Below, one piece after another: positions 2,708-40,120 of a stretch of 53,969 bases of DNA. The stretch lies in the NCBI GenBank assembly GCA_023259115.1, contig JAHFQW010000001.1, forward strand, positions 17,929-71,897, written 5' to 3'. Each line of letters starts with the position of its first letter. The stretch's first letter is position 1. The position numbers and the translations under genes were made by a program. The notes beneath the pieces are model-generated. The model worked only from the letters and a program-made list of their open reading frames with translations. It did not search any database and was not told the origin of the DNA. The stretch is from an archaeon. GTDB lineage: Archaea > Nanobdellota > Nanobdellia > Woesearchaeales > GW2011-AR9.

Positions 2708-3754
2708 CTACTTTATCGCTCTCAGAGAATACCATTTTCCATTCGTTACTCTTCCATTATTTAATAGAATCTCCGCTGATTTTTGCCACACCAAATCTAG
2801 ATGAAAACGTTCACGCCTAAAATATTGTTCTATATCCAAATCAGACTCAAAAGGGTAAAAATGATCATGATTTGCAAAAGTCTGCATACAACTCATCAAA
2901 TCTCTTCTTGCGTTACTCATTTCCCCTTTATAAGAATTCACAAGACTAAGAAAATAGGGTAAGAGATTAGGTTTCACATTAGAATTAACACATAACTCTT
3001 CATCCACAAAATGTGCTCCATGTTTTAATCCACGCTGAATCTTGCATATCACTTCAGACTTATCATAGGAGCGAATATGCGTAAAAAAAAGATGCGTTGC
3101 CACCATATCCCATATATTTTCATCAATACCTAATCTATGAAGAATATTTCCCTGCCTATATTCAATTTTCACTCCATATAATTCATTTCCACAATACTTC
3201 TGTGCAATCTCCAGAGGGTTCTCATTAAAATCAAATGCACAAATCGTTGGATTTTTTACATCTGCCACATGGAGCATAGCTGCTAGATTTTCCAGTGAAT
3301 AAATCGTTGAAAAACCTAACAACAAAACTCTAGGATTTTCAATCAATTTATCATGTAAATCAGTAATAGCTCTCTTAAAAATCGCTGTACCCCCTGGATA
3401 ACCCAGCGTACTTGCACCTCTCTGTAACGTATAATACACCAACGCCGCCCTATGATACGCATCTTTACCAACTAACGCCCCATCTGCCATTTGCAATGCC
3501 CCCTGCTGTCGCAACAAACTCAAAGAGGATTGAACTTGTTCAGCTTGTGAAGAAGAAAAACGATGAGATAACAATGCCAGTTCTTTTTGTAAATCAACTG
3601 ATTTATAAAAATCTTGGAATCTTCCTCTGTGAAAATCCACCTCCACATCACTAGCCATTCTCCTCAAATCGTCTTGCGAACTCAACTGCTCATACGTTCT
3701 ACCATTAAATACAACAGCATTCTCTAACCGCACCGGAAATGTATCTGTACCCAT
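2708..3754 (-). CDS. Class I SAM-dependent methyltransferase-like protein
   Basis: C-terminal RVLLLG...AFDFNENPLEIAQ...YRQGNIL...WDMVATHLFFTHI...LKHGAHFV pattern; motif I is degenerate. Confidence 0.55.
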   Translation of the reverse strand: MGTDTFPVRLENAVVFNGRTYEQLSSQDDLRRMASDVEVDFHRGRFQDFYKSVDLQKELALLSHRFSSSQAEQVQSSLSLLRQQGALQMADGALVGKDAYHRAALVYYTLQRGASTLGYPGGTAIFKRAITDLHDKLIENPRVLLLGFSTIYSLENLAAMLHVADVKNPTICAFDFNENPLEIAQKYCGNELYGVKIEYRQGNILHRLGIDENIWDMVATHLFFTHIRSYDKSEVICKIQRGLKHGAHFVDEELCVNSNVKPNLLPYFLSLVNSYKGEMSNARRDLMSCMQTFANHDHFYPFESDLDIEQYFRRERFHLDLVWQKSAEILLNNGRVTNGKWYSLRAIK

Positions 3755-3852
3755 AAACCACCCTCAGAAATCACCTCTTTATTAATCTGATTAGACATTA
3801 TTCACTACTTTAATTGAATAAAGCTTATAAACTAATTTTGTAAACCCTAATT

Positions 3853-5224: not shown

Positions 5225-5335
5225 AGCCCCTGGCGAGATTTGAACTCGCGACCTCGTCCTCATTGTCTTTTCATTAAAAACATCTTTCCAACAAAACATA
5301 CCAAGGACGCGCTATAGCCACTAAGCCACAGGGGC
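5225..5335 (-). tRNA. tRNA-Thr(GGT) with 38-nt intron at 37/38 (5261-5298)
   Basis: GCCCCTG/CAGGGGC acceptor, CGTCC-TTGGTA|A-GGACG anticodon arm, GCGAG-TTCAAAT-CTCGC T arm. No encoded CCA. Confidence 0.93.
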
Positions 5336-5422: not shown

Positions 5423-5547
5423 TGCCGGGGAAGGGATTTGAACCCTCGAACCCACTAAGAGACAGGATATCTTCTCTTCTGCACAAACAGAAGTGTCTTT
5501 CTGGGTACTTAAGTCCTGCGCATTTGGCCAAGCTTTGCTACCCCGGC
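5423..5547 (-). tRNA. tRNA-Leu(TAA) with 39-nt intron at 37/38 (5469-5507)
   Basis: GCCGGGG/CCCCGGC acceptor, CAGGA-CTTAAG|A-TCCTG anticodon arm, long variable arm, GAGGG-TTCAAAT-CCCTT T arm. Confidence 0.93.
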
Positions 5548-14993: not shown

Positions 14994-15059
14994 AGAGGTG
15001 CATATTCCCATCCGCTTTTTAAAGGTTGGGGTGGATAAAATCGCATGTTCTAAAGAATG

Positions 15060-15203
15060 TATAGATACGGCAGTAATTTATCGAACATATAAAAGCCGTA
15101 TCTATATGCGGGGAAACCGCCGTTTCCTGCATGCCAGAAATCGTAGTTTCTGTGCATAGGGCGGCACTAACTATTTGTTCGATTAATTAGTGCCGCACGT
15201 ATA
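15060..15203. repeat. Family A double-hairpin element with nested family B insert (15107-15158)
   Basis: TATAGATACGGC-23nt-GCCGTATCTATA, then the insert, then GCGGCACTAA-16nt-TTAGTGCCGC...TATA. Length is ~92 bp without the insert. Confidence 0.75.
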
Positions 15204-15251
15204 CCAAAATCTAAAGCAAATTATTTAAAGAACATTTCTTAAGTTAGAAAG

Positions 15252-15338
15252 ATGTACATCCATAATCAAAAAATTAAGAAATGGCATGGTTACATTGGCA
15301 AAGAAGAAACAGATAAAACCATGGATGAATTATACTAA
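15252..15338 (+). CDS. 28-aa ORF or gene remnant between two hairpin elements
   Basis: MYIHNQKIKKWHGYIGKEETDKTMDELY with a TTTAAAG box ~28 bp upstream. The stop codon lies inside the next element. Confidence 0.35.
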   Translation: MYIHNQKIKKWHGYIGKEETDKTMDELY

Positions 15339-15542
15339 AAGCACGAAATATTTGTATACACAAAATGTGAAGAATATCACATTTGTGCACCAATGAAATC
15401 GTCGTTTCATTGTGTGTTTGTTCGTGCTTTTATACACAAAGCAAAGAAACGACTTTGCTTGTGCACAAATGGAATCGTTATTCCATTTTGTGTATACAAA
15501 GGCACTAACTATTTCGTACGATTAATTAGTGCCTTTGGTATA
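15331..15542. repeat. Family A double-hairpin element with two nested family B inserts (15355-15416, 15431-15496)
   Basis: TAAAAGCACGAA/TTCGTGCTTTTA and CAAAGGCACTAA/TTAGTGCCTTTG stems. The inserts start TATACAA-like (TATACACAAA), carry hairpin-GTGCAC-hairpin, and end TGTGTG or TGTGTATA. Confidence 0.72.
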
Positions 15543-15615
15543 CGATAAAAGAAAGATTAACACAATCTTATAACTTCTTATTTTTTCATTACTATTTAAA
15601 AATGATAAAAATACT

Positions 15616-15652: not shown

Positions 15653-17236
15653 ATGAGCGATTCCCAAAAAAGTACTATCGAACAAACCACCACTCCAGCC
15701 ATAAAAACCGGCACTATTCTCATTCAAGACACGAAACGCACATTTGAAATTGAAGGTACCAAATATCAAGAACTTGCAACATTAGGCTCAACTACCACAA
15801 ATCGTACCTATCTCGTTCAAGGCCCAAACGGCAAAGCCGTCATCAAATCATTAAACGATCGTATAACCACAACACAAAACATCCAAGACCAAACCAAAGC
15901 CATGGAACTCTTTGAACGCGAAGCCGCCCTCTTAGCCCGTCTAGATCATCCTCAAATCCCCAAACTCTATCAATGTTTTCAAGCCCCAGATGCCGATGGA
16001 AGAATTGGACAGTACCTCATGCAAGAACATTTTGAAAGCAAAAATCTCGAAGCTCTCCTCCAACAACGCACTAAAATAACCCCGCAAGAAGCCATCAGTA
16101 TTCTTCTCTCCGTCATAAAACCTCTAGAATATATTCACTCCCACAACCCCCCAATCATTCATCGCGACATAAAACCCGCCAATATATTATGGGATGGCAT
16201 TGAAGCCAAACTCGTTGACCTCGGCTCCGCCCTAGATAAAAAACACGATTCCCTTGGCGGTTCCACCATCGCCGGAACTCGTGGCTACATGGCTCCTGAA
16301 CAATGGATTGGCTCCGCCGCACCTCAATCAGACATCTATAGTCTTGGCGCCACTCTGCTTCGTCTCATCACCGGCATCCCTATCGAAACTCTCTATGACG
16401 AAAAAGCCACAAAATTTGAAAAACGCTTCGCCATCCAATACAAAGAAAAAGTCGGAGAGAACATACCTCCCGATTTGCAAACCATCCTAGATAACTGCCT
16501 CCAATTCGATACCGACAAACGCTATACATCTATAACAGAATTACACACCGCACTAGAAACATATCTGGACACAACAGCAGCCTCACCACAAAAGAGAACA
16601 AAAGAAATCAAAAACAACAAAACATCCTCAATTCAACCAAAATTGATGGTAGGAATAATGGTTCTAGCAACCGTAGCAGTTATGGGAATAGTAGAGATGT
16701 CGGATTATAGAAAAAAACACTTCCACACCCTCTCCCAAAACGAAGTCGCCATCTTAATAGATGACAAAGGCAATTACCGAGAAGATACAGAATGCAAAAA
16801 TCCTCCTTTTTCAGGACTACAAGTCAAACACCCCAGCGACACCGTCATCGAATACACCACACCCAACCATGTCAGCACCATTCAGACCTTCAATAAAATA
16901 CCCCTCTACAGCGTGCTTCACTATAGAATCACCGACCCCGTTAACATTCACACCATCATGAACATGTATGATCGCTCACACCAAAGTATGGGCAATAACT
17001 CTGAACAATATCCTAATCCAACTAAACTCACCCTCTTCCTAGAAGACTTTTTGCAGCAAGAGGTTGCCAACTACTTCAAAGAACACCCCAACACCAACAT
17101 AGAAAAATCAACCAATCCCTCCCAAACCGACCCCCTCGATGACTACATCAAAAAATCCTGCCAACTCAAACTCCCTCGTGGCCTCGAATGTATCTCCTAT
17201 GAATGGACTAAAGGCATATCACTTCCCGCACAATAA
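15653..17236 (+). CDS. Hanks-type Ser/Thr protein kinase with TM helix and SPFH-like C-terminal domain
   Basis: AVIK, FEREA, HRDIKPAN, DLG, GTRGYMAPEQ and SDIYSLG motifs; TM LMVGIMVLATVAVMGIV; C-terminal GLQVKHP...LHYRITDP. Confidence 0.9.
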   Translation: MSDSQKSTIEQTTTPAIKTGTILIQDTKRTFEIEGTKYQELATLGSTTTNRTYLVQGPNGKAVIKSLNDRITTTQNIQDQTKAMELFEREAALLARLDHPQIPKLYQCFQAPDADGRIGQYLMQEHFESKNLEALLQQRTKITPQEAISILLSVIKPLEYIHSHNPPIIHRDIKPANILWDGIEAKLVDLGSALDKKHDSLGGSTIAGTRGYMAPEQWIGSAAPQSDIYSLGATLLRLITGIPIETLYDEKATKFEKRFAIQYKEKVGENIPPDLQTILDNCLQFDTDKRYTSITELHTALETYLDTTAASPQKRTKEIKNNKTSSIQPKLMVGIMVLATVAVMGIVEMSDYRKKHFHTLSQNEVAILIDDKGNYREDTECKNPPFSGLQVKHPSDTVIEYTTPNHVSTIQTFNKIPLYSVLHYRITDPVNIHTIMNMYDRSHQSMGNNSEQYPNPTKLTLFLEDFLQQEVANYFKEHPNTNIEKSTNPSQTDPLDDYIKKSCQLKLPRGLECISYEWTKGISLPAQ

Positions 17237-18419: not shown

Positions 18420-19721
18420 ATGGCAAAAACAAAAGAACACATTAACTTAGTATTTATTGGTCACGTTGATCACGGTAAATCAACCACCGTTGGGCGATTG
18501 TTATTCGATACCGGAAATATTGACGAACAAGCCATGCGAAAATTAAGAGAGAAAGCCGAACAACTAGGCAAGAAAGGCTTCGAATTTGCATTTGTCATGG
18601 ACAACTTAAAAGAAGAGCAAGAACGTGGAGTAACCATTGACCTCTCCCACAAGCGCTTCGATACAGACAAATATTACTTCACAATTATTGACGCACCTGG
18701 GCACAAGGATTTCATTAAAAACATGATTACTGGCGCATCCCAAGCAGATGCCGCCGTCATTGTTGTTGCCGCAAACGACGGTGTCAACGCTCAAACTATC
18801 GAGCATCTCCGTCTGAGCAAAATCTTCGGTGTTGGTCAATTATTAGTTGCCGTCAACAAAATGGATATGCCCGGTGTTGACTTCGCAGAAAAACGCTTCA
18901 ATGAAGTTGTCGAAGACGTTAAAAAACACGCAGCCCAAGCCGGCTGGAAAGTGGACAAACTACGATTCCTCCCCATCGCATCATTGCCTGGTGAAAATAT
19001 CACTAAAAAATGTGCAAAAATGCCTTGGTGGAGTGGAGACACATTATTAGAAGGAATTAACAAATTCGAAGTACCTCCAAAACCAACCAACTTACCACTA
19101 CGTATGCCCATTCAAGATGTATACAATATCACCGGAATTGGTGTAGTCCCCGTTGGACGTATTGAAACAGGTATCATGAAAGCAGGAGACAAAATTATGA
19201 TCGTTCCTGGACGTGAAGGAAAAGGTGTTCCTGGCGAGATTAAATCTATTGAAATGCATCACGAAAACGTCGCTCAAGCAGAACCTGGAGACAACGTTGG
19301 TATCAACGTCCGTGGTTTAGGTAAAAAAGACATCGCTCGTGGAGACGTTCTCGGACATGCTGACAACGTACCAACTGTTGCCACTGAATTCACCGCGCAA
19401 ATTGTGGTCATGAACCATCCTAGTGTTGTAACCGTTGGATACACACCAGTATTCCACATCCACACCGCGCAAGTTGCCTGTCAGATCATCGAAATCTTGA
19501 AAAAGATCAACCCTGCAACCGGTCAAGAAATCTCTGAAAACAAAGACATCTTGAAAAACGGTGACGCTGCTATTGTCAAATTAAAACCAATGCAGCCGCT
19601 TGTTATCGAGAAAGGTACTGGTGACAATGCCATTCCCCAACTATCTCGATTCGCTATCCGCGATTCCGGAACAACCGTAGGTGCTGGAATGTGTATGGAT
19701 GTTGTCAAAAAAGTATTATAG
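18420..19721 (+). CDS. tuf: Archaeal elongation factor 1-alpha
   Basis: [35 protein letters not shown] and RFAIRD motifs, with archaeal-type insertions. Confidence 0.98.
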
Positions 19722-19810
19722 TAAATGTGTGAAATAATCGAATATTAACTTACACATTTACTTATTAGTAATGGTGAACAAATATTCGAAAATTATTCAC
19801 CATTACTATA
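19717..19810. repeat. TATA-bounded double-hairpin element (family A), 94 bp
   Basis: AGTAAATGTGT/ACACATTTACT stem, TAT linker, then TAGTAATGGTGAA-17nt-TTCACCATTACTA. The leading TATAG includes the tuf stop codon. Confidence 0.8.
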
Positions 19811-19922
19811 TAATTTTTTTTTATTTGATTTATTTAAAAAAGAAATATTTATAAAGAGGAGCTAATCCCCACAACAATAGAAACATGATGAATGAAACAT
19901 TCACCCTGTACATGAGGAAAAA

Positions 19923-20297: not shown

Positions 20298-20345
20298 TAT
20301 AGAGGAGTTTGACAAGTTTTATAGGGTTATTCAAACCGCTCTATA
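20298..20345. repeat. Head-to-head pair of family C repeats
   Basis: TATAGAGGAGTTTGACAAG...TATAGGGTTATTCAAACCGCTCTATA, between convergent genes. Confidence 0.7.
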
Positions 20346-20405
20346 GTGCATTTTGTTATAATTCAGAACGTTTTTCACTTCTTTAAATTCAATTAATCTC
20401 TAAAA

Positions 20406-21824: not shown

Positions 21825-22070
21825 ATGCCCTCCTCCGAATTCTATCCTAAATCCTGGCAATGGATATTCTACCTGCTTGGCTGGATCTTTGGCACCCTCA
21901 CTCTCGTCTTCTGGCTCATGCTCTATATATCCTATCTCACTTACGACAAACCACAAAATCTCAAATTCATCAACAACAACTTCCATCGAAGAATCTATCT
22001 ATTTGGACTATGGACATCATGTATTGTAGCAATACTCGCAATTATATGGACCATTCTATTATTTATATAA
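21825..22070 (+). CDS. Small 2-TM membrane protein
   Basis: 81 aa with two hydrophobic helices; TTTATATA box ~30 bp upstream. Confidence 0.6.
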   Translation: MPSSEFYPKSWQWIFYLLGWIFGTLTLVFWLMLYISYLTYDKPQNLKFINNNFHRRIYLFGLWTSCIVAILAIIWTILLFI

Positions 22071-22088
22071 CAACTATTCAGAATTGAC

Positions 22089-23408
22089 CTAATAACACCC
22101 CAGCTCCTCATTCACCATATCCACAAATAACTTTGTCAAATACAATTCCAGCACATCCTGCGTCTGTGTTTTAATCACCATACTGCTTGCCAAAGGCGTG
22201 AACCGAACCACACCACCAATATTATTATTATTATTATTATCTGTAAAATGAGTAGTATCATTAAAACCACCATCATTAAACTTAACATCATTAAAAGTAG
22301 TATTATTCAACAGCATAAAATGATGTGCCACCACCTTCTTCTGCCTCAGAGCATATTTAAGTAAAAAACGCATAGATTGCAAAAAAGAAAAAAATGTATC
22401 TCCTGGAAGCCCATACATCAAATCAATCTTATATTTAATTCGTGAAGTATTCAAAAGCCCCAGTGCAACTCTTACTTTTTCCATATTCGTCGGTCGATTT
22501 GCCAAACGCAGCACCTCAGAACTCGAAGACTGAAATCCCAGCTCACAACGCAGCGCAAAAGAATACTTCTCTATCCTCTCAACCATCTCTGCATCAATTA
22601 ATTCCGGCCGTAACTCACAATGCACCTCAATCTTCTTGCCATACTTCAACGTATACTCCTCCACCATATCCAATAGGGTAAACATCCTCTCTTTGTGCGT
22701 ATTAAAATTCGCATCAATAAACGTCAGATTATGAAAAGAAAACTCAGAAAACAAATACTCTAAATTCTCCCGAAGATATGGTAATGAAAAAGTACGAAAC
22801 GCCGGTTTGGCATAATGACAAAAATTACAATTAAACACACAACCCCGCGCCGTCTCCACTCGCAGCGCTTGAAAGTGTTTCACCTCACTACATCGATAGG
22901 GAAAAGGAATCTCATCCAAATTCTCCACCTCTTTTTTCACCGTTTCAACTACACGTCCCTCTCGAACACACAAAATATTATGAACCTCCTCAATCACACG
23001 CTCTCCCTTCAAGAAATCAACCAACTCTTTTAATGCAATCTCCCCCTCCCCCACCACAATAAAATCAATTTCCGAACGCAAATGCTTCCGATCAACCTCA
23101 ACCCCCCCCAACACCACCGTAATAGTAGGATCAAGCACTTTAATTGCTCGTGCAAAATCTTGCGCCATCTCCCCGCTCCAGATATAATTACTAAACGCCA
23201 CAACCTCAGGCTTACTCAACAAAATATAAGATAACACCTGTAATTCCAAATTTTTATTCGTTTCATAACTCTGTCGATTGCCAAATGAAAACTCTTTCAG
23301 ATCAATCTCCACATCAGGGTGATATTTCAACAAATAGCCCTTCAAATACATAAGACCCAGCGGAAACACCGATTCTTGTACATTAAAACCGAGCAGTAAA
23401 ATCTTCAT
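22089..23408 (-). CDS. Cobalamin-binding radical SAM protein
   Basis: N-terminal PLGLMYL...AFSNYIW...VLGG...GEGE B12-binding domain; ETARGCVFNCNFC (CxxxCxxC); DANFN; GLPG. Confidence 0.9.
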   Translation of the reverse strand: MKILLLGFNVQESVFPLGLMYLKGYLLKYHPDVEIDLKEFSFGNRQSYETNKNLELQVLSYILLSKPEVVAFSNYIWSGEMAQDFARAIKVLDPTITVVLGGVEVDRKHLRSEIDFIVVGEGEIALKELVDFLKGERVIEEVHNILCVREGRVVETVKKEVENLDEIPFPYRCSEVKHFQALRVETARGCVFNCNFCHYAKPAFRTFSLPYLRENLEYLFSEFSFHNLTFIDANFNTHKERMFTLLDMVEEYTLKYGKKIEVHCELRPELIDAEMVERIEKYSFALRCELGFQSSSSEVLRLANRPTNMEKVRVALGLLNTSRIKYKIDLMYGLPGDTFFSFLQSMRFLLKYALRQKKVVAHHFMLLNNTTFNDVKFNDGGFNDTTHFTDNNNNNNIGGVVRFTPLASSMVIKTQTQDVLELYLTKLFVDMVNEELGCY

Positions 23409-24132
23409 GATTCACAAAATTCAAAACCCCCTCATATTTTCTTGTAACTACTGTGGTTGTATCTAAAATAGGTGCAGGAATAAATCTCTCCCATTTATAC
23501 TCTTTATAAAAACAATACTTCATCAAAACACATCCCGCACATTCTTTTGGTTTATCTCTGCTCAAATCTACTCTCAAATCCCCTCTCAACCCATCTCGAA
23601 TATAAATCTCAAATGCGTGCTTCACATCAATCTTACAGAGAGGAACATTCTTAACTATAGGAAATCTCTTCCACAACACCATCTCTTTAAATATATCCGG
23701 TATTCGTAACAATTCCTCCTCAGAATCAACAGAAATAATCACTCGATTGACACGTTCACATTGTTTTAAAATATCTGCTGTAAATAACTTAACTGGCACA
23801 ATTAACTCCAAATATAGTTTTAAATTGAGTTTTTTATCTAACTCAATTTTACCCAACTTAAGAATCAGCCCAATATCTTCTCCCTGTTCCAACACAATAG
23901 ATAGATAATTCACAACCCCGCCCGTTCTCTTAAAATCTACAACCTCCGCAATAACAGAATCTAATAAAGAACTAGATAACTGTAACCCTCTCAACCCATG
24001 CTTCCTTGTTTTCAAAATCTCAAACGCCCTAGTCAATTCCAAGCCCGATTCAACCACCAACACCACAGGTTTATCTTCAAATAACAATGTATAATCAGAC
24101 ACACCAATATACCATTTTTGCAACATAAACAT
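23383..24132 (-). CDS. Hypothetical protein with SPASM-like Cys cluster at C-terminus
   Basis: KNVPLC...KECAGCVLMKYC. Start moved to MFMLQ (AGGTG RBS) because the listed 5' extension lies in the repeat. Confidence 0.55.
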   Translation of the reverse strand: MFMLQKWYIGVSDYTLLFEDKPVVLVVESGLELTRAFEILKTRKHGLRGLQLSSSLLDSVIAEVVDFKRTGGVVNYLSIVLEQGEDIGLILKLGKIELDKKLNLKLYLELIVPVKLFTADILKQCERVNRVIISVDSEEELLRIPDIFKEMVLWKRFPIVKNVPLCKIDVKHAFEIYIRDGLRGDLRVDLSRDKPKECAGCVLMKYCFYKEYKWERFIPAPILDTTTVVTRKYEGVLNFVNHEDFTARF

Positions 24133-24156
24133 CCAAAATACACCTATTTTATAAGA

Positions 24157-24252
24157 ATATAGTAAACTACGTAGGATTTCGCACATGAATCATCGCAGTT
24201 TACTTATTAGATAACTGCGCCAAATGTGTTATAAACCGCGCAGTTATCTATA
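24157..24252. repeat. Family A double-hairpin element, direct-repeat copy 1 (96 bp)
   Basis: 93/96 identical to 25796-25891. Confidence 0.9.
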
Positions 24253-24261
24253 TCTTACATT

Positions 24262-25017
24262 TTATCGCTTCAAAAACTTCTCCACCCCTTCACGAAACGA
24301 CGGTGCCGCAACTGCCACTGCTTGCAATTCTTCCTCCAAACGCAACTGCTCATCAAAACGTTCAATAGTTCTACTCCTCATCGCTTTTTTAACCAAATTC
24401 AGAACCAGTGGCGAACGTCCTGCTAACTCTTGTGCTATCTGATAGGTCTCTCTTGCCAACTCATCAACCGTAGCATAGACTCCTGTAAGTAACCCCTCTG
24501 CTAACGCATCAGATGCTTTATATGTTTTTGCACGTAGTACAATCTCTAAAGCTTTCTTCTCACCCACCAATGCTGGAATCAAATACGTCCCCCCACACGC
24601 CGGAATTAACCCTCTCTCCACAAATGTAAACGCCAAACGACTCTGCTCAACCGCATACGTCAAATCACAAGCTAACGCAAACATCAACCCCGCACCAGAT
24701 GCCGAGCCATTCATTGCGCACACCACTGGTTTGGCACAAGAATAAATCTCTTTTGCAATCGGATCAAACAATGAACGATGCAATCGCACAATAGTATCTG
24801 TATCACTGAGATCCACACTTTTCAGATCCAATCCCCCGCAGAAAACCCCACCAGAACCCGTCAAATAAATAACCCGAACCTCATCAGACATACGTGCATC
24901 TTGAACAGCCTCATACAACAATCTCGCCGCAGGTTCATCCAACGTATTCGCCGCAGGTCTATTGAGCACAATTTTTGCAATGTGTTCATCCACACTATAT
25001 TGAATCATATCAGCCAT
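24262..25017 (-). CDS. Enoyl-CoA hydratase/isomerase (PaaG-like crotonase)
   Basis: LNRP...FCGGLDL...KPVVCAMNGSASGAG...ACD...GLIP motifs. Start set at MADM after a GGAGAGG RBS. Confidence 0.9.
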   Translation of the reverse strand: MADMIQYSVDEHIAKIVLNRPAANTLDEPAARLLYEAVQDARMSDEVRVIYLTGSGGVFCGGLDLKSVDLSDTDTIVRLHRSLFDPIAKEIYSCAKPVVCAMNGSASGAGLMFALACDLTYAVEQSRLAFTFVERGLIPACGGTYLIPALVGEKKALEIVLRAKTYKASDALAEGLLTGVYATVDELARETYQIAQELAGRSPLVLNLVKKAMRSRTIERFDEQLRLEEELQAVAVAAPSFREGVEKFLKR

Positions 25018-25034
25018 TTCAATTTCCTCTCCAT

Positions 25035-25757
25035 TCAATTTCTTCCAAATACTTTTCTTGCCCCTCTCATAAGTTCCGCCGCAAGTGTCGTAATTTCACG
25101 TTCAACTAATTCTTGCTTTGTTGGCGGCACACCAGAATAAGATATACATCGTGCACTAGATGTCAACAGACTCACAAACCCATTCAAAATATATTTTGCT
25201 CCTTCTTGCACTTTTTCTCCTTCATGCATAAAAATCGGATGCACCGGAAACACCGCAAGTGTTCCTTGTTCTGGTCTAATCCGTAGCACTTCACAACGAG
25301 CACTGCGAAACACCGTATCCCCTCCTCTAAAATTATCATTCAGATACAAAATATACGCAAAACGCCTAGACAGTGCCAGAACCGAAGAATCATCCGAATG
25401 AATAGGAAAGCCATCACCCACATTATATTTTTTCATTCGAGGATCTAGTGTATAAATCCCTGCTTTCACTTTTTCCAAAAAAGGTTCATACGCAATATGC
25501 TCATCCAAATACTCATCAATCTGCGCACGTAATTTTCGATAGACAATTCCTAATAATTTCTCCCCCTGCATCTTCTCATCAGTCATAATAATCTGTTCAA
25601 ATGTAATAGCAGAACCATTCAACTGCTCTTGCGAATTTCGCTTAGGAGTCGCCTCAAAATAATCAATCACTCGTGAACACAAATCAGGAGTTAAAACACT
25701 CTGATAGAGTGCCATCCCATAGGGCAATCCCGAACCAATACGTGTAATATCTCCCAT
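25035..25757 (-). CDS. 2OG-Fe(II) oxygenase (prolyl-4-hydroxylase-like)
   Basis: HSD...YILYLND-FRGGDTVF...FMHEG...KY (HxD...H triad). Start set at MGDIT. Confidence 0.85.
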   Translation of the reverse strand: MGDITRIGSGLPYGMALYQSVLTPDLCSRVIDYFEATPKRNSQEQLNGSAITFEQIIMTDEKMQGEKLLGIVYRKLRAQIDEYLDEHIAYEPFLEKVKAGIYTLDPRMKKYNVGDGFPIHSDDSSVLALSRRFAYILYLNDNFRGGDTVFRSARCEVLRIRPEQGTLAVFPVHPIFMHEGEKVQEGAKYILNGFVSLLTSSARCISYSGVPPTKQELVEREITTLAAELMRGARKVFGRN

Positions 25758-25795
25758 AATAAAAAACAACCCAAGAAACCTCCTCAATAATAATG

Positions 25796-25891
25796 ATATA
25801 GTAAACTGCGTAGGATGTCGCACATGAATCATCGCAGTTTACTTATTAGATAACTGCGCCAAATATGTTATAAACCGCGCAGTTATCTATA
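25796..25891. repeat. Family A double-hairpin element, direct-repeat copy 2 (96 bp)
   Basis: AGTAAACTGCG-22nt-CGCAGTTTACT, TAT, then TAGATAACTGCGC-17nt-GCGCAGTTATCTA. Confidence 0.9.
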
Positions 25892-26006
25892 ACAATGAAT
25901 TTACCTCAATTTTATTTAAACCTTTCCCACTAAATTATGTCAAAAACGTACACATACCACTTATTTCACAACCTTTTTAAACAACCACCCACCCTCATAA
26001 ATTAAC

Positions 26007-26774
26007 ATGATGCTGCGCAAACTCTATTTAGGCGAACCAACCACAACCGCCCCCTCATTCTTCAAAGATAGATTAGTTCTCTGGTTTGACGCCGTGACAC
26101 CACAAACCATGAATACTCTAGATACATTTCTAGGTGGAAAATATCAATTAAAACAAGAAGCACCCGCCGAAGAACTAACAGGAGTGGACATTGTAGAGTA
26201 TGCGAACCAATCTTTATTTTTTCTGGGAAATGAAACCACAAACCTTTGGAAACATTTGAAGGAAAAAAAAGATGAATATTTGGATTTACTATCTGATGAA
26301 CTTAAAGATAATACTCCCGGAAATGATATACCCTTTACTTCAAATGCATTAGAATACAGCAATGCCATTAAAAATGCATTCACACAAATCACAAAAAAAA
26401 TGACAAAATTACAATACCACCAAAACCTAGAACATCACCTCCAAACCGGCAGTTCCGCCATGCTCTTCTATGCCAATCAATTACAATCATTTAAAGCAGA
26501 CACATGGACAATGGACCATCCCTCAGACGATTGGAACAGCGAACCATTGCAACCTCAAATCATAAAACTATCATTCCAACCATTCAGAAAAGATGTTCTA
26601 ACAGACCTTATAGGAATCCTCTTCGGAGAAGACCTCAACTACGAATCTCCTCGTCATAAAGAAGTATTACAACAAATCGTCTCCGGAAAACTCACCGAAT
26701 ATAGAGGACATGCTCTCTGCGAACATCGTGAAGCAGAACATAAAAATAAACAAGCTGCTCAACCAGCTCTATAA
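26007..26774 (+). CDS. Hypothetical protein
   Basis: 255-aa ORF with no recognised motif. Confidence 0.65.
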   Translation: MMLRKLYLGEPTTTAPSFFKDRLVLWFDAVTPQTMNTLDTFLGGKYQLKQEAPAEELTGVDIVEYANQSLFFLGNETTNLWKHLKEKKDEYLDLLSDELKDNTPGNDIPFTSNALEYSNAIKNAFTQITKKMTKLQYHQNLEHHLQTGSSAMLFYANQLQSFKADTWTMDHPSDDWNSEPLQPQIIKLSFQPFRKDVLTDLIGILFGEDLNYESPRHKEVLQQIVSGKLTEYRGHALCEHREAEHKNKQAAQPAL

Positions 26775-26807
26775 AACTAAAGAGAAAATCATCTCATTTC
26801 TTCACAC

Positions 26808-39964: not shown

Positions 39965-40120
39965 ACTTCTTTATTACTCTGGCAATCATCATTATTTCTA
40001 ATGTCAATAATCCTCTTTATGAATGGGGGAGATTTTAAGTTTTGGTTTTCTCCCATTTAAGTTGAATACTACTGTTTCTTCGACGAAAGGTTTAAAAAGT
40101 AAATGCTTGAGATTGTAGAT

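Follow-up and report, generated by a model that had tools for sequence, protein, structure and literature searches.

Two direct copies of an IS630-type hairpin repeat around a 2OG-Fe(II) oxygenase gene and a crotonase gene in a woesearchaeal genome

The locus and its genes

The window, i.e. the whole stretch of 53,969 nucleotides that was analysed, belongs to the genome assembly of an archaeon (1.57 Mb, 96% complete). Within it, two genes encoding a 2OG-Fe(II) oxygenase and a crotonase lie between two near-identical hairpin repeats (Table 1). The initial annotation had described direct copies, identical at 93 of 96 positions, that enclose two co-oriented genes, and this description was borne out, with both genes on the minus strand. 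The product of the first gene matches the 2OG-FeII_Oxy_3 domain (E 2.6e-12), has homologues at 46-53% in the alignment and gives weak matches in the PDB to prolyl 4-hydroxylases (E 9e-4). The product of the second matches ECH_1 (E 7.5e-47), and its best NCBIfam match is PaaG-like, below the cut-off. Translation of the crotonase may start at a TTG at 25038, which overlaps the stop codon of the oxygenase gene, or at an ATG at 25017, and the two genes are likely to form a coupled operon in which the crotonase gene is the second.

Table 1. Features of the locus, with positions numbered from the first letter of the window
Feature	Position	Strand	Remarks
Variable five-gene block	22071..26807	.	4.7 kb; absent here in two same-genus genomes
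B12-binding radical SAM gene	22089..23408	-	Part of the variable block
Unknown gene, left neighbour	23383..24126	-	Beside the radical SAM gene in all relatives having it
MITE copy 1	24158..24252	+	TA-flanked, hairpins A and B, IS630-type
Copy 1 hairpin A	24161-24204		11-bp stem
Copy 1 hairpin B	24208-24250		12-bp stem
Crotonase / enoyl-CoA hydratase-isomerase gene	24262..25038	-	Pfam PF00378
2OG-Fe(II) oxygenase gene	25035..25757	-	240 aa; prolyl-4-hydroxylase-like fold family; Pfam PF13640
MITE copy 2	25797..25891	+	IS630-type
Predicted BRE-TATA promoter	25911..25930	-	TATA first base 25920, 29 bp outside copy 2
Unknown gene, right neighbour	26007..26774	+	Belongs to the variable block; 4 of 113 family genomes have homologues

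The two 96-nt repeats (24157-24252 and 25796-25891) have the same orientation, are 1639 bp apart from start to start, and resemble each other far beyond chance (BLAST E 8e-41). Since the first of the 96 bases belongs to the flank, the element proper has 95 bp and reads TATAG...CTATA. Both copies fold into hairpins with z scores between -5.4 and -7.0. Their three mismatches are located at 24169, 24178 and 24226/25865. Two of them are changes private to copy 1, both in its left half, and the third is private to copy 2, in its right half, so that all three fall in the outer halves, an arrangement expected by chance in one case out of eight. Copy 1 lies 9 bp past the stop codon of the crotonase gene, and 2 bp separate it from the downstream TATA box that serves the next gene. 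This TATA box (first base 24155, at -29) is the left neighbour's own, and it is present in the related genome G002 too.

Other features of the window were recorded in passing. Two matches to tRNAs (5225-5335 and 5423-5547) exceed the model length and probably correspond to intron-containing tRNAs. The Bro-N gene at 31836-32684 has a third-position GC skew of 0.09, unlike its neighbours, suggesting a recent foreign origin.

The repeat family across the genome

The host genome is rich in repeats. Non-coding sequence accounts for 221 of its 261 repeated regions, many of which are nested in one another, and 157 of the 970 intergenic gaps, about one in six, carry a repeat; consecutive gaps are both occupied in 29 cases, against 24 expected. 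Of 113 other genomes of the archaeal family, 21 contain matches to the repeat family under study, while Rfam returned no family at the repeats and the repeat pattern had no match in viral contigs. Across 14 full-length copies, 98.1% of the stem cells pair, and at 4 of the 23 stem pairs both sides have changed, which supports the hairpins but, the sequences being related, falls short of proof. Hairpin repeats of related families also occur in the window after the EF-1 alpha gene (19717-19815), before the kinase gene at 15653 (15057-15543), after the uS10 gene (20300-20347) and at the left edge of the variable five-gene block (22045-22094). The EF-1 alpha and uS10 genes are of archaeal type.

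The closest relatives of the pair are found elsewhere in the same assembly. After removal of a 92-nt insert nested in it, a third copy (G000 C38:29959-30146) matches copy 1 at 92 of 95 positions and copy 2 at 93 of 95, the pair itself agreeing at 92 of 95. Half-copies on contigs C12, C17 and C26 show 91-98% identity. Full-length copies of this young subfamily number about three in the assembly, and two of them are adjacent. The claim that the other family members are highly diverged thus holds inside the window, but not across the genome. Copies with identical hairpin halves are also known from G495 and G475, where they sit on separate contigs.

IS630 parentage

Among 20 IS630 loci of the archaeal family, 4 have ends that match repeats of this genome. 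An intact element of 1097 bp (L045, on G499:C95), bounded on either side by the same 14-bp terminal repeat, agrees with copy 2 at 27 of 34 positions at the left end and at 24 of 34 at the right end, the tips being identical at 12 of 14 and 14 of 14 positions, respectively. It codes for an IS630 transposase of 337 aa (NF033545, 219 bits against a cut-off of 100). Duplication of the target can be read in a sister subfamily that shares the right end of the element; nested in the loop of another repeat, it has TA on both sides, where the empty repeat has a single one. On the basis of the end matches and of this TA duplication, and as far as its sequence features tell, the repeat is an IS630-type MITE, i.e. 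a short, non-coding, multicopy and mostly intergenic element with ends that match those of an autonomous IS630. Elements of the IS630/Tc1/mariner group use TA as their target, which they duplicate, and for ISY100 30 bp per end are enough, according to the part of PMC2170065 considered here.

An empty TA site was not found for either copy. In an empty-site comparison for two copies located in another genus, the flanks are too diverged to be read. At the orthologous site of G002 there is no element, but the sequence opens with a TATAG-like stretch and is followed by different genes, so that it qualifies neither as a clean empty site nor as a clear remnant. Movement in trans is something that we can only infer, because an IS630 transposase was not found in this 96%-complete assembly.

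A derivation from REP/REPIN or IS200/IS605 elements was considered and rejected: there is no Y1_Tnp in this genome, and among 30 Y1 loci of the archaeal family a single one was accompanied by such an element, and that on just one side. The ends of the IS630 loci L046, L058, L060 and L152 match a second hairpin family of this genome.

Orientation and fold-back ends

All 15 left ends of this repeat family point one way along the replichore, and the motifs of other repeat families are oriented likewise in 38 of 39, 24 of 24 and 71 of 76 cases. Since the elements point one way along each replichore, the direct orientation of the pair is uninformative. At about 39965-40102, the GC skew changes abruptly from negative to positive, and the orientation of the MITEs changes with it. 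This region is a candidate replication origin; the ORFs scanned near it gave no cdc6-like Pfam hit. In other genomes, where the skew is weak, 9 of 21 copies were usable and 6 of these follow it. The strict polarity with GC skew in this genome is unusual. In bacteria, IS630 elements show an orientation bias in few or no chromosomes, as stated in the part of PMC3971601 considered here.

A further unusual trait is that each end of the MITE has its own internal fold-back copy. The parent IS differs in this respect, as the internal fold-back copy is absent near the left end in all four parent-type IS elements for which both ends were found. For the polarity, contact with the sliding clamp is a possible cause and would be simpler than folded single strands. 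This idea derives from the C-termini of the IS630 transposases, which end in [IV]xSFF, similar to the PCNA consensus given in PMC3971601 but lacking its Q. Such a terminal motif, resembling a PCNA-binding box, was seen in the transposases of L045, L046, L058, L060, L151 and L152. A more far-reaching proposal, which we regard as unlikely, is that the fold-back ends evolved to let a single strand exposed at the replication fork fold up into two adjacent duplex transposon ends, that a DDE transposase would move the 95-bp element in a fork-coupled and strand-polarised manner, and that pairs of elements would shuttle small operons between sites.

Promoter and residence of the operon

Promoters were scored with a matrix trained on this genome, for which the median training site scores 10.1 and the 95th percentile of shuffled sequences is 9.0. 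The operon promoter predicted outside copy 2 scores 10.6, and the best candidate inside the bracket, itself located within the element, scores 5.1. TATA boxes in this genome peak at -30 from the ATG. Copy 2 would therefore be placed, going by this prediction, at about the transcription start of the operon, between the TATA box and the leader, and it is likely to have split the promoter from the leader. The gain of the genes as a cassette would make the outside promoter a fortunate neighbour. Promoter scores at the site of copy 1 do not distinguish between separate insertions and a cassette, and no general preference for a distance to TATA boxes was seen at 202 element ends. A likely consequence of the arrangement is that the operon mRNA has a predicted double hairpin at its 5' end and another one right after the stop codon.

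The third-position GC skew of the two genes (0.80 and 0.88) corresponds to the 72nd and 94th percentiles of 632 genes of the G-rich strand. The genes thus carry the strand skew of this chromosome, which fits a long residence and suggests that they are older residents than elements that differ by about 3%; a relocation within the genus would be compatible with it.

Distribution of the genes and of the variable block

Both genes are sparsely distributed, and in the genomes searched they were never found together elsewhere. The oxygenase gene occurs in none of 40 relatives, in none of 400 genomes of the order and in 1 of 400 genomes of the phylum, and a scan of metagenomes returned one distant locus. 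Homologues of it are present in a member of the archaeal family (G447, 39%) and in a record titled as a Deltaproteobacteria MAG (50%), in both cases without the crotonase gene or these repeats. The crotonase gene occurs in 3 of the 40 relatives, at loci without the oxygenase gene and without repeats. The bracketed unit was not found at a second site in the genomes and collections searched, which include no second strain of the species.

The comparison with two same-genus genomes defines a larger unit. There, the kinase gene, a small ORF (21825-22070) and uvrB are consecutive, or separated by one extra ORF. Since these genomes lack the whole block at this position, the variable unit comprises five genes and is larger than the bracket. 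The left flanking gene was found in 14 of the 113 family genomes, and in none of the 18 loci examined are the two flanking genes adjacent. A single-repeat empty allele was not seen in the 113 family genomes. A two-gene cassette as the unit gained, and relatives that carry one element and lack both genes, as had been suggested initially, are thus not what the comparison reveals: the same-genus species lack the five-gene block, and the homologues occur separately and without repeats.

Strain-level variation was also noted around the operon. A contig of run X4 departs from the window at 25950, 58 bp to the right of copy 2, and its loose end is an exact match to one terminus of an IS481-like element (L120, G000 C15:12049-12945), whose ORF of 284 aa is intact and which is located elsewhere in this genome. 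The departure is likely to reflect an insertion of this IS in a strain. Several such ends precede a TATA box by about 24-26 bp. In single contigs of X1 and X4, substitutions are clustered at 24808-24825, 25254-25263, 25404-25461 and 26163-26204, in and beside the operon, which suggests recombined strain alleles.

Origin of the bracket

The explanation that we favour, and consider probable, consists of two separate IS630-driven insertions, around the two-gene operon, of MITEs that belong to a single young subfamily. The operon was probably already in place before either MITE landed. An IS630 transposase acting in trans would have moved the elements by cut and paste into TA, both copies would stem from one burst of the subfamily, and the second may have arrived by a short local hop. 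Copy 2 would have fallen at about the transcription start of the operon, and copy 1 just past its stop codon. In this case the bracketing itself would be incidental, a by-product that could still permit later deletion or composite movement of the 1.6 kb. Two direct MITE copies could in principle support composite movement, or recombine out a circle of 1639 bp.

The high identity of the pair had been read as a sign of a recent duplication. The copies are young indeed, as copies of a mobile element, but a local duplication is not needed to account for their identity, given that an equally close copy is located on another contig (C38). The frequency of such neighbours was assessed by a permutation over 220 repeat regions, in which the counts include this pair, itself selected for the property. 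Pairs with at least 95% identity over at least 80 nt number 2 within 3 kb (0.59 expected, p=0.12) and 4 within 10 kb (1.73 expected, p=0.094), and at a looser threshold of at least 90% over at least 40 nt there is no excess (3 against 3.68). Of 135 regions, 6 have their best relative no more than 10 kb away (1.77 expected), again with the selected pair included. The excess of near-identical neighbours is not significant and hints weakly at copying over short distances, as Tc1/mariner elements in eukaryotes are described to do by local hopping (PMC2874221, in the part considered). A second bracket, of 3.3 kb, was found in G495 (L121, C96), where same-family MITE copies at 253-474 and 3691-3784 enclose two co-oriented genes for a radical SAM protein and a polysaccharide flippase; about 0.35 such brackets were expected, and a copy with identical halves is present on another contig as well. 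This second bracket and the nearby best relatives speak against separate insertions, as do the confinement of all three differences to the outer halves, the adjacency of two of the about three full-length copies, and the fact that neither an empty TA site for either copy nor an IS630 transposase in the assembly was found.

Alternatively, a 1.64-kb circle comprising the operon and one MITE might have been integrated into a resident MITE, in line with the initial annotation but by host recombination in place of a site-specific enzyme, leaving two hybrid copies, which we hold to be unlikely. A crossover between an older resident copy and a younger incoming one predicts that the differences fall in the outer halves, and the inner halves of both copies, when joined into a hybrid, match the C38 copy at 94 of 95 positions. 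The direct orientation, the accessory nature of the genes and the weak excess of near-identical neighbours also agree with such an event. However, the direct orientation is automatic where all copies point one way per replichore, the highest-scoring promoter is external to the repeat and keeps the distance from TATA box to start that is usual in this genome, the genes show the strand skew of the host, the variable block contains five genes instead of two, and the single-repeat allele is absent from the 113 family genomes. Sequencing depth inside the bracket (7.3-8.9) is likewise similar to that of the flanks (7.3-9.8) in two runs. No joint that skips the 1639 bp was seen in the contig layout, in which such contigs break at the 47-bp identical core and would hide a rare circle or empty allele.

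Composite transposition appears rather improbable as well. Here, the MITE copies would have flanked the operon at a different location, and the resulting unit of 1734 bp would have moved by its outer ends into a TA at this site, with an IS630 transposase supplied in trans. The outer ends are intact IS630-type ends with passenger genes between them, a similar bracket exists in G495, and MITE pairs known as IMU (PMC3184786) and TIMEs (PMC4133298) are described, in the parts of these sources considered, as mobilising the DNA between them. Against this stand the TA duplication, which fits two single insertions equally well, the lack of a second location of the unit among the sequences searched, the position of the promoter outside the 1734 bp, the long-resident appearance of the genes and the fact that the two genes were never found together elsewhere.

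That the pair was produced by an assembly artefact or by local gene conversion is very improbable. All four sides at which a flank joins its copy are covered by contigs of run X1 with the copy-specific letters, and three are shown for run X2, where the left-flank contig stops at 24095. What speaks for an artefact is that none of the listed contigs crosses a whole repeat and that both runs, which belong to one study, may include the source sample. With copy-specific letters joined to their own flanks and an even depth, an artefact is unlikely as the origin of the pair, and the possibility raised at the outset, that the duplication could be refuted on this ground, is made unlikely by the contigs of the two runs, whose support for the phase, with no listed contig across a whole repeat, falls short of proof. 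As regards gene conversion, three private differences have been kept, and the copies are no closer to each other than to the C38 copy.

The integron or dif mechanism proposed in the initial annotation, i.e. insertion by a tyrosine recombinase, can be dismissed as extremely improbable: stable hairpins, a central palindrome (8 of 11 in the 11-6-11 layout, 9 of 11 at 4-bp spacing) and an inner segment without a good promoter of its own are in its favour, but cores of the form RYYYAAC or GTTRRRY are absent from both strands of both copies, the IS630 terminal repeat accounts for the arms, the copies are scattered singly and not arrayed, and the sole tyrosine recombinase found in the 96%-complete assembly (one PF00589 match) is below every cut-off, with 80.7 bits against 265 for the integron integrase TIGR02249 and 116.9 against 220 for XerA. 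An attC or dif site was rejected on these grounds, attC sites being delimited by the cores RYYYAAC ... GTTRRRY, and dif being a 28-bp site of 11-6-11 layout with Xer-type arms. The recombinase (L001:1474-2184, G000 C15) is a XerA-like protein of 236 aa, from which the catalytic C-terminus is presumably missing, to judge by its motifs.

Comparison with known systems

The bracket is probably an ordinary by-product of a repeat-rich genome and not a new cassette system. What is of lasting value is the element, an abundant hairpin repeat, from an archaeal family with small genomes, for which a specific IS630 parent can be named. This parent, the fold-back copies at the ends and the strict strand polarity may be of interest to specialists, and they raise the questions of whether single-stranded ends, once folded, serve as substrates of a DDE transposase and whether genes are moved by MITE pairs in these archaea. 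The literature searched, which covers few subscription journals, yielded no description of the element; a 2026 survey of archaeal IS (PMC13343696) treats IS630 and MITEs just generally in the part considered.

Several known systems share part of these features. Integron attC sites and dif/Xer modules also present hairpin repeats that flank promoter-poor genes, but their core motifs and recombinase were not found here. IMU and NFM2-MITE integrons (PMC3184786) and TIMEs (PMC4133298) consist, as at this locus, of two near-identical direct MITEs around a few genes. In the parts of these sources considered, they are characterised by a 5-6 bp duplication solely at the outer ends or by demonstrated movement, whereas here TA is found at both ends of every copy, the sequences searched gave no other location of the unit, and the promoter is situated outside. 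The CIR repeats of Caulobacter (PMC2229807) similarly have TA termini and form separate stem-loops from their 5' and 3' halves; they are listed, in the part of that source considered, without terminal repeats and with an unknown mechanism of mobility, while for the present element an IS630 parent has been identified. The TA target and the short terminal repeats are shared with ISY100, for which about 30 bp are sufficient (PMC2170065, in the part considered), compared with 30-34 bp kept here. Unlike IS630/Tc1/mariner elements, the MITE contains no transposase, and none was found in the assembly. Finally, RUP of Streptococcus pneumoniae, a 107-bp element for which IS630-Spn1 is the proposed mover, is an IS630-family MITE (PMC2229807). 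According to the part of that source considered here, RUP and the archaeal element have in common a size of about 100 bp, a non-coding and AT-rich sequence, an intergenic location, TA ends, terminal repeats that match IS630 and insertion into mobile elements. The element described here differs from RUP in its archaeal host, in the fold-back copy at each end, which gives rise to two hairpins, and in its near-absolute orientation with the GC skew.
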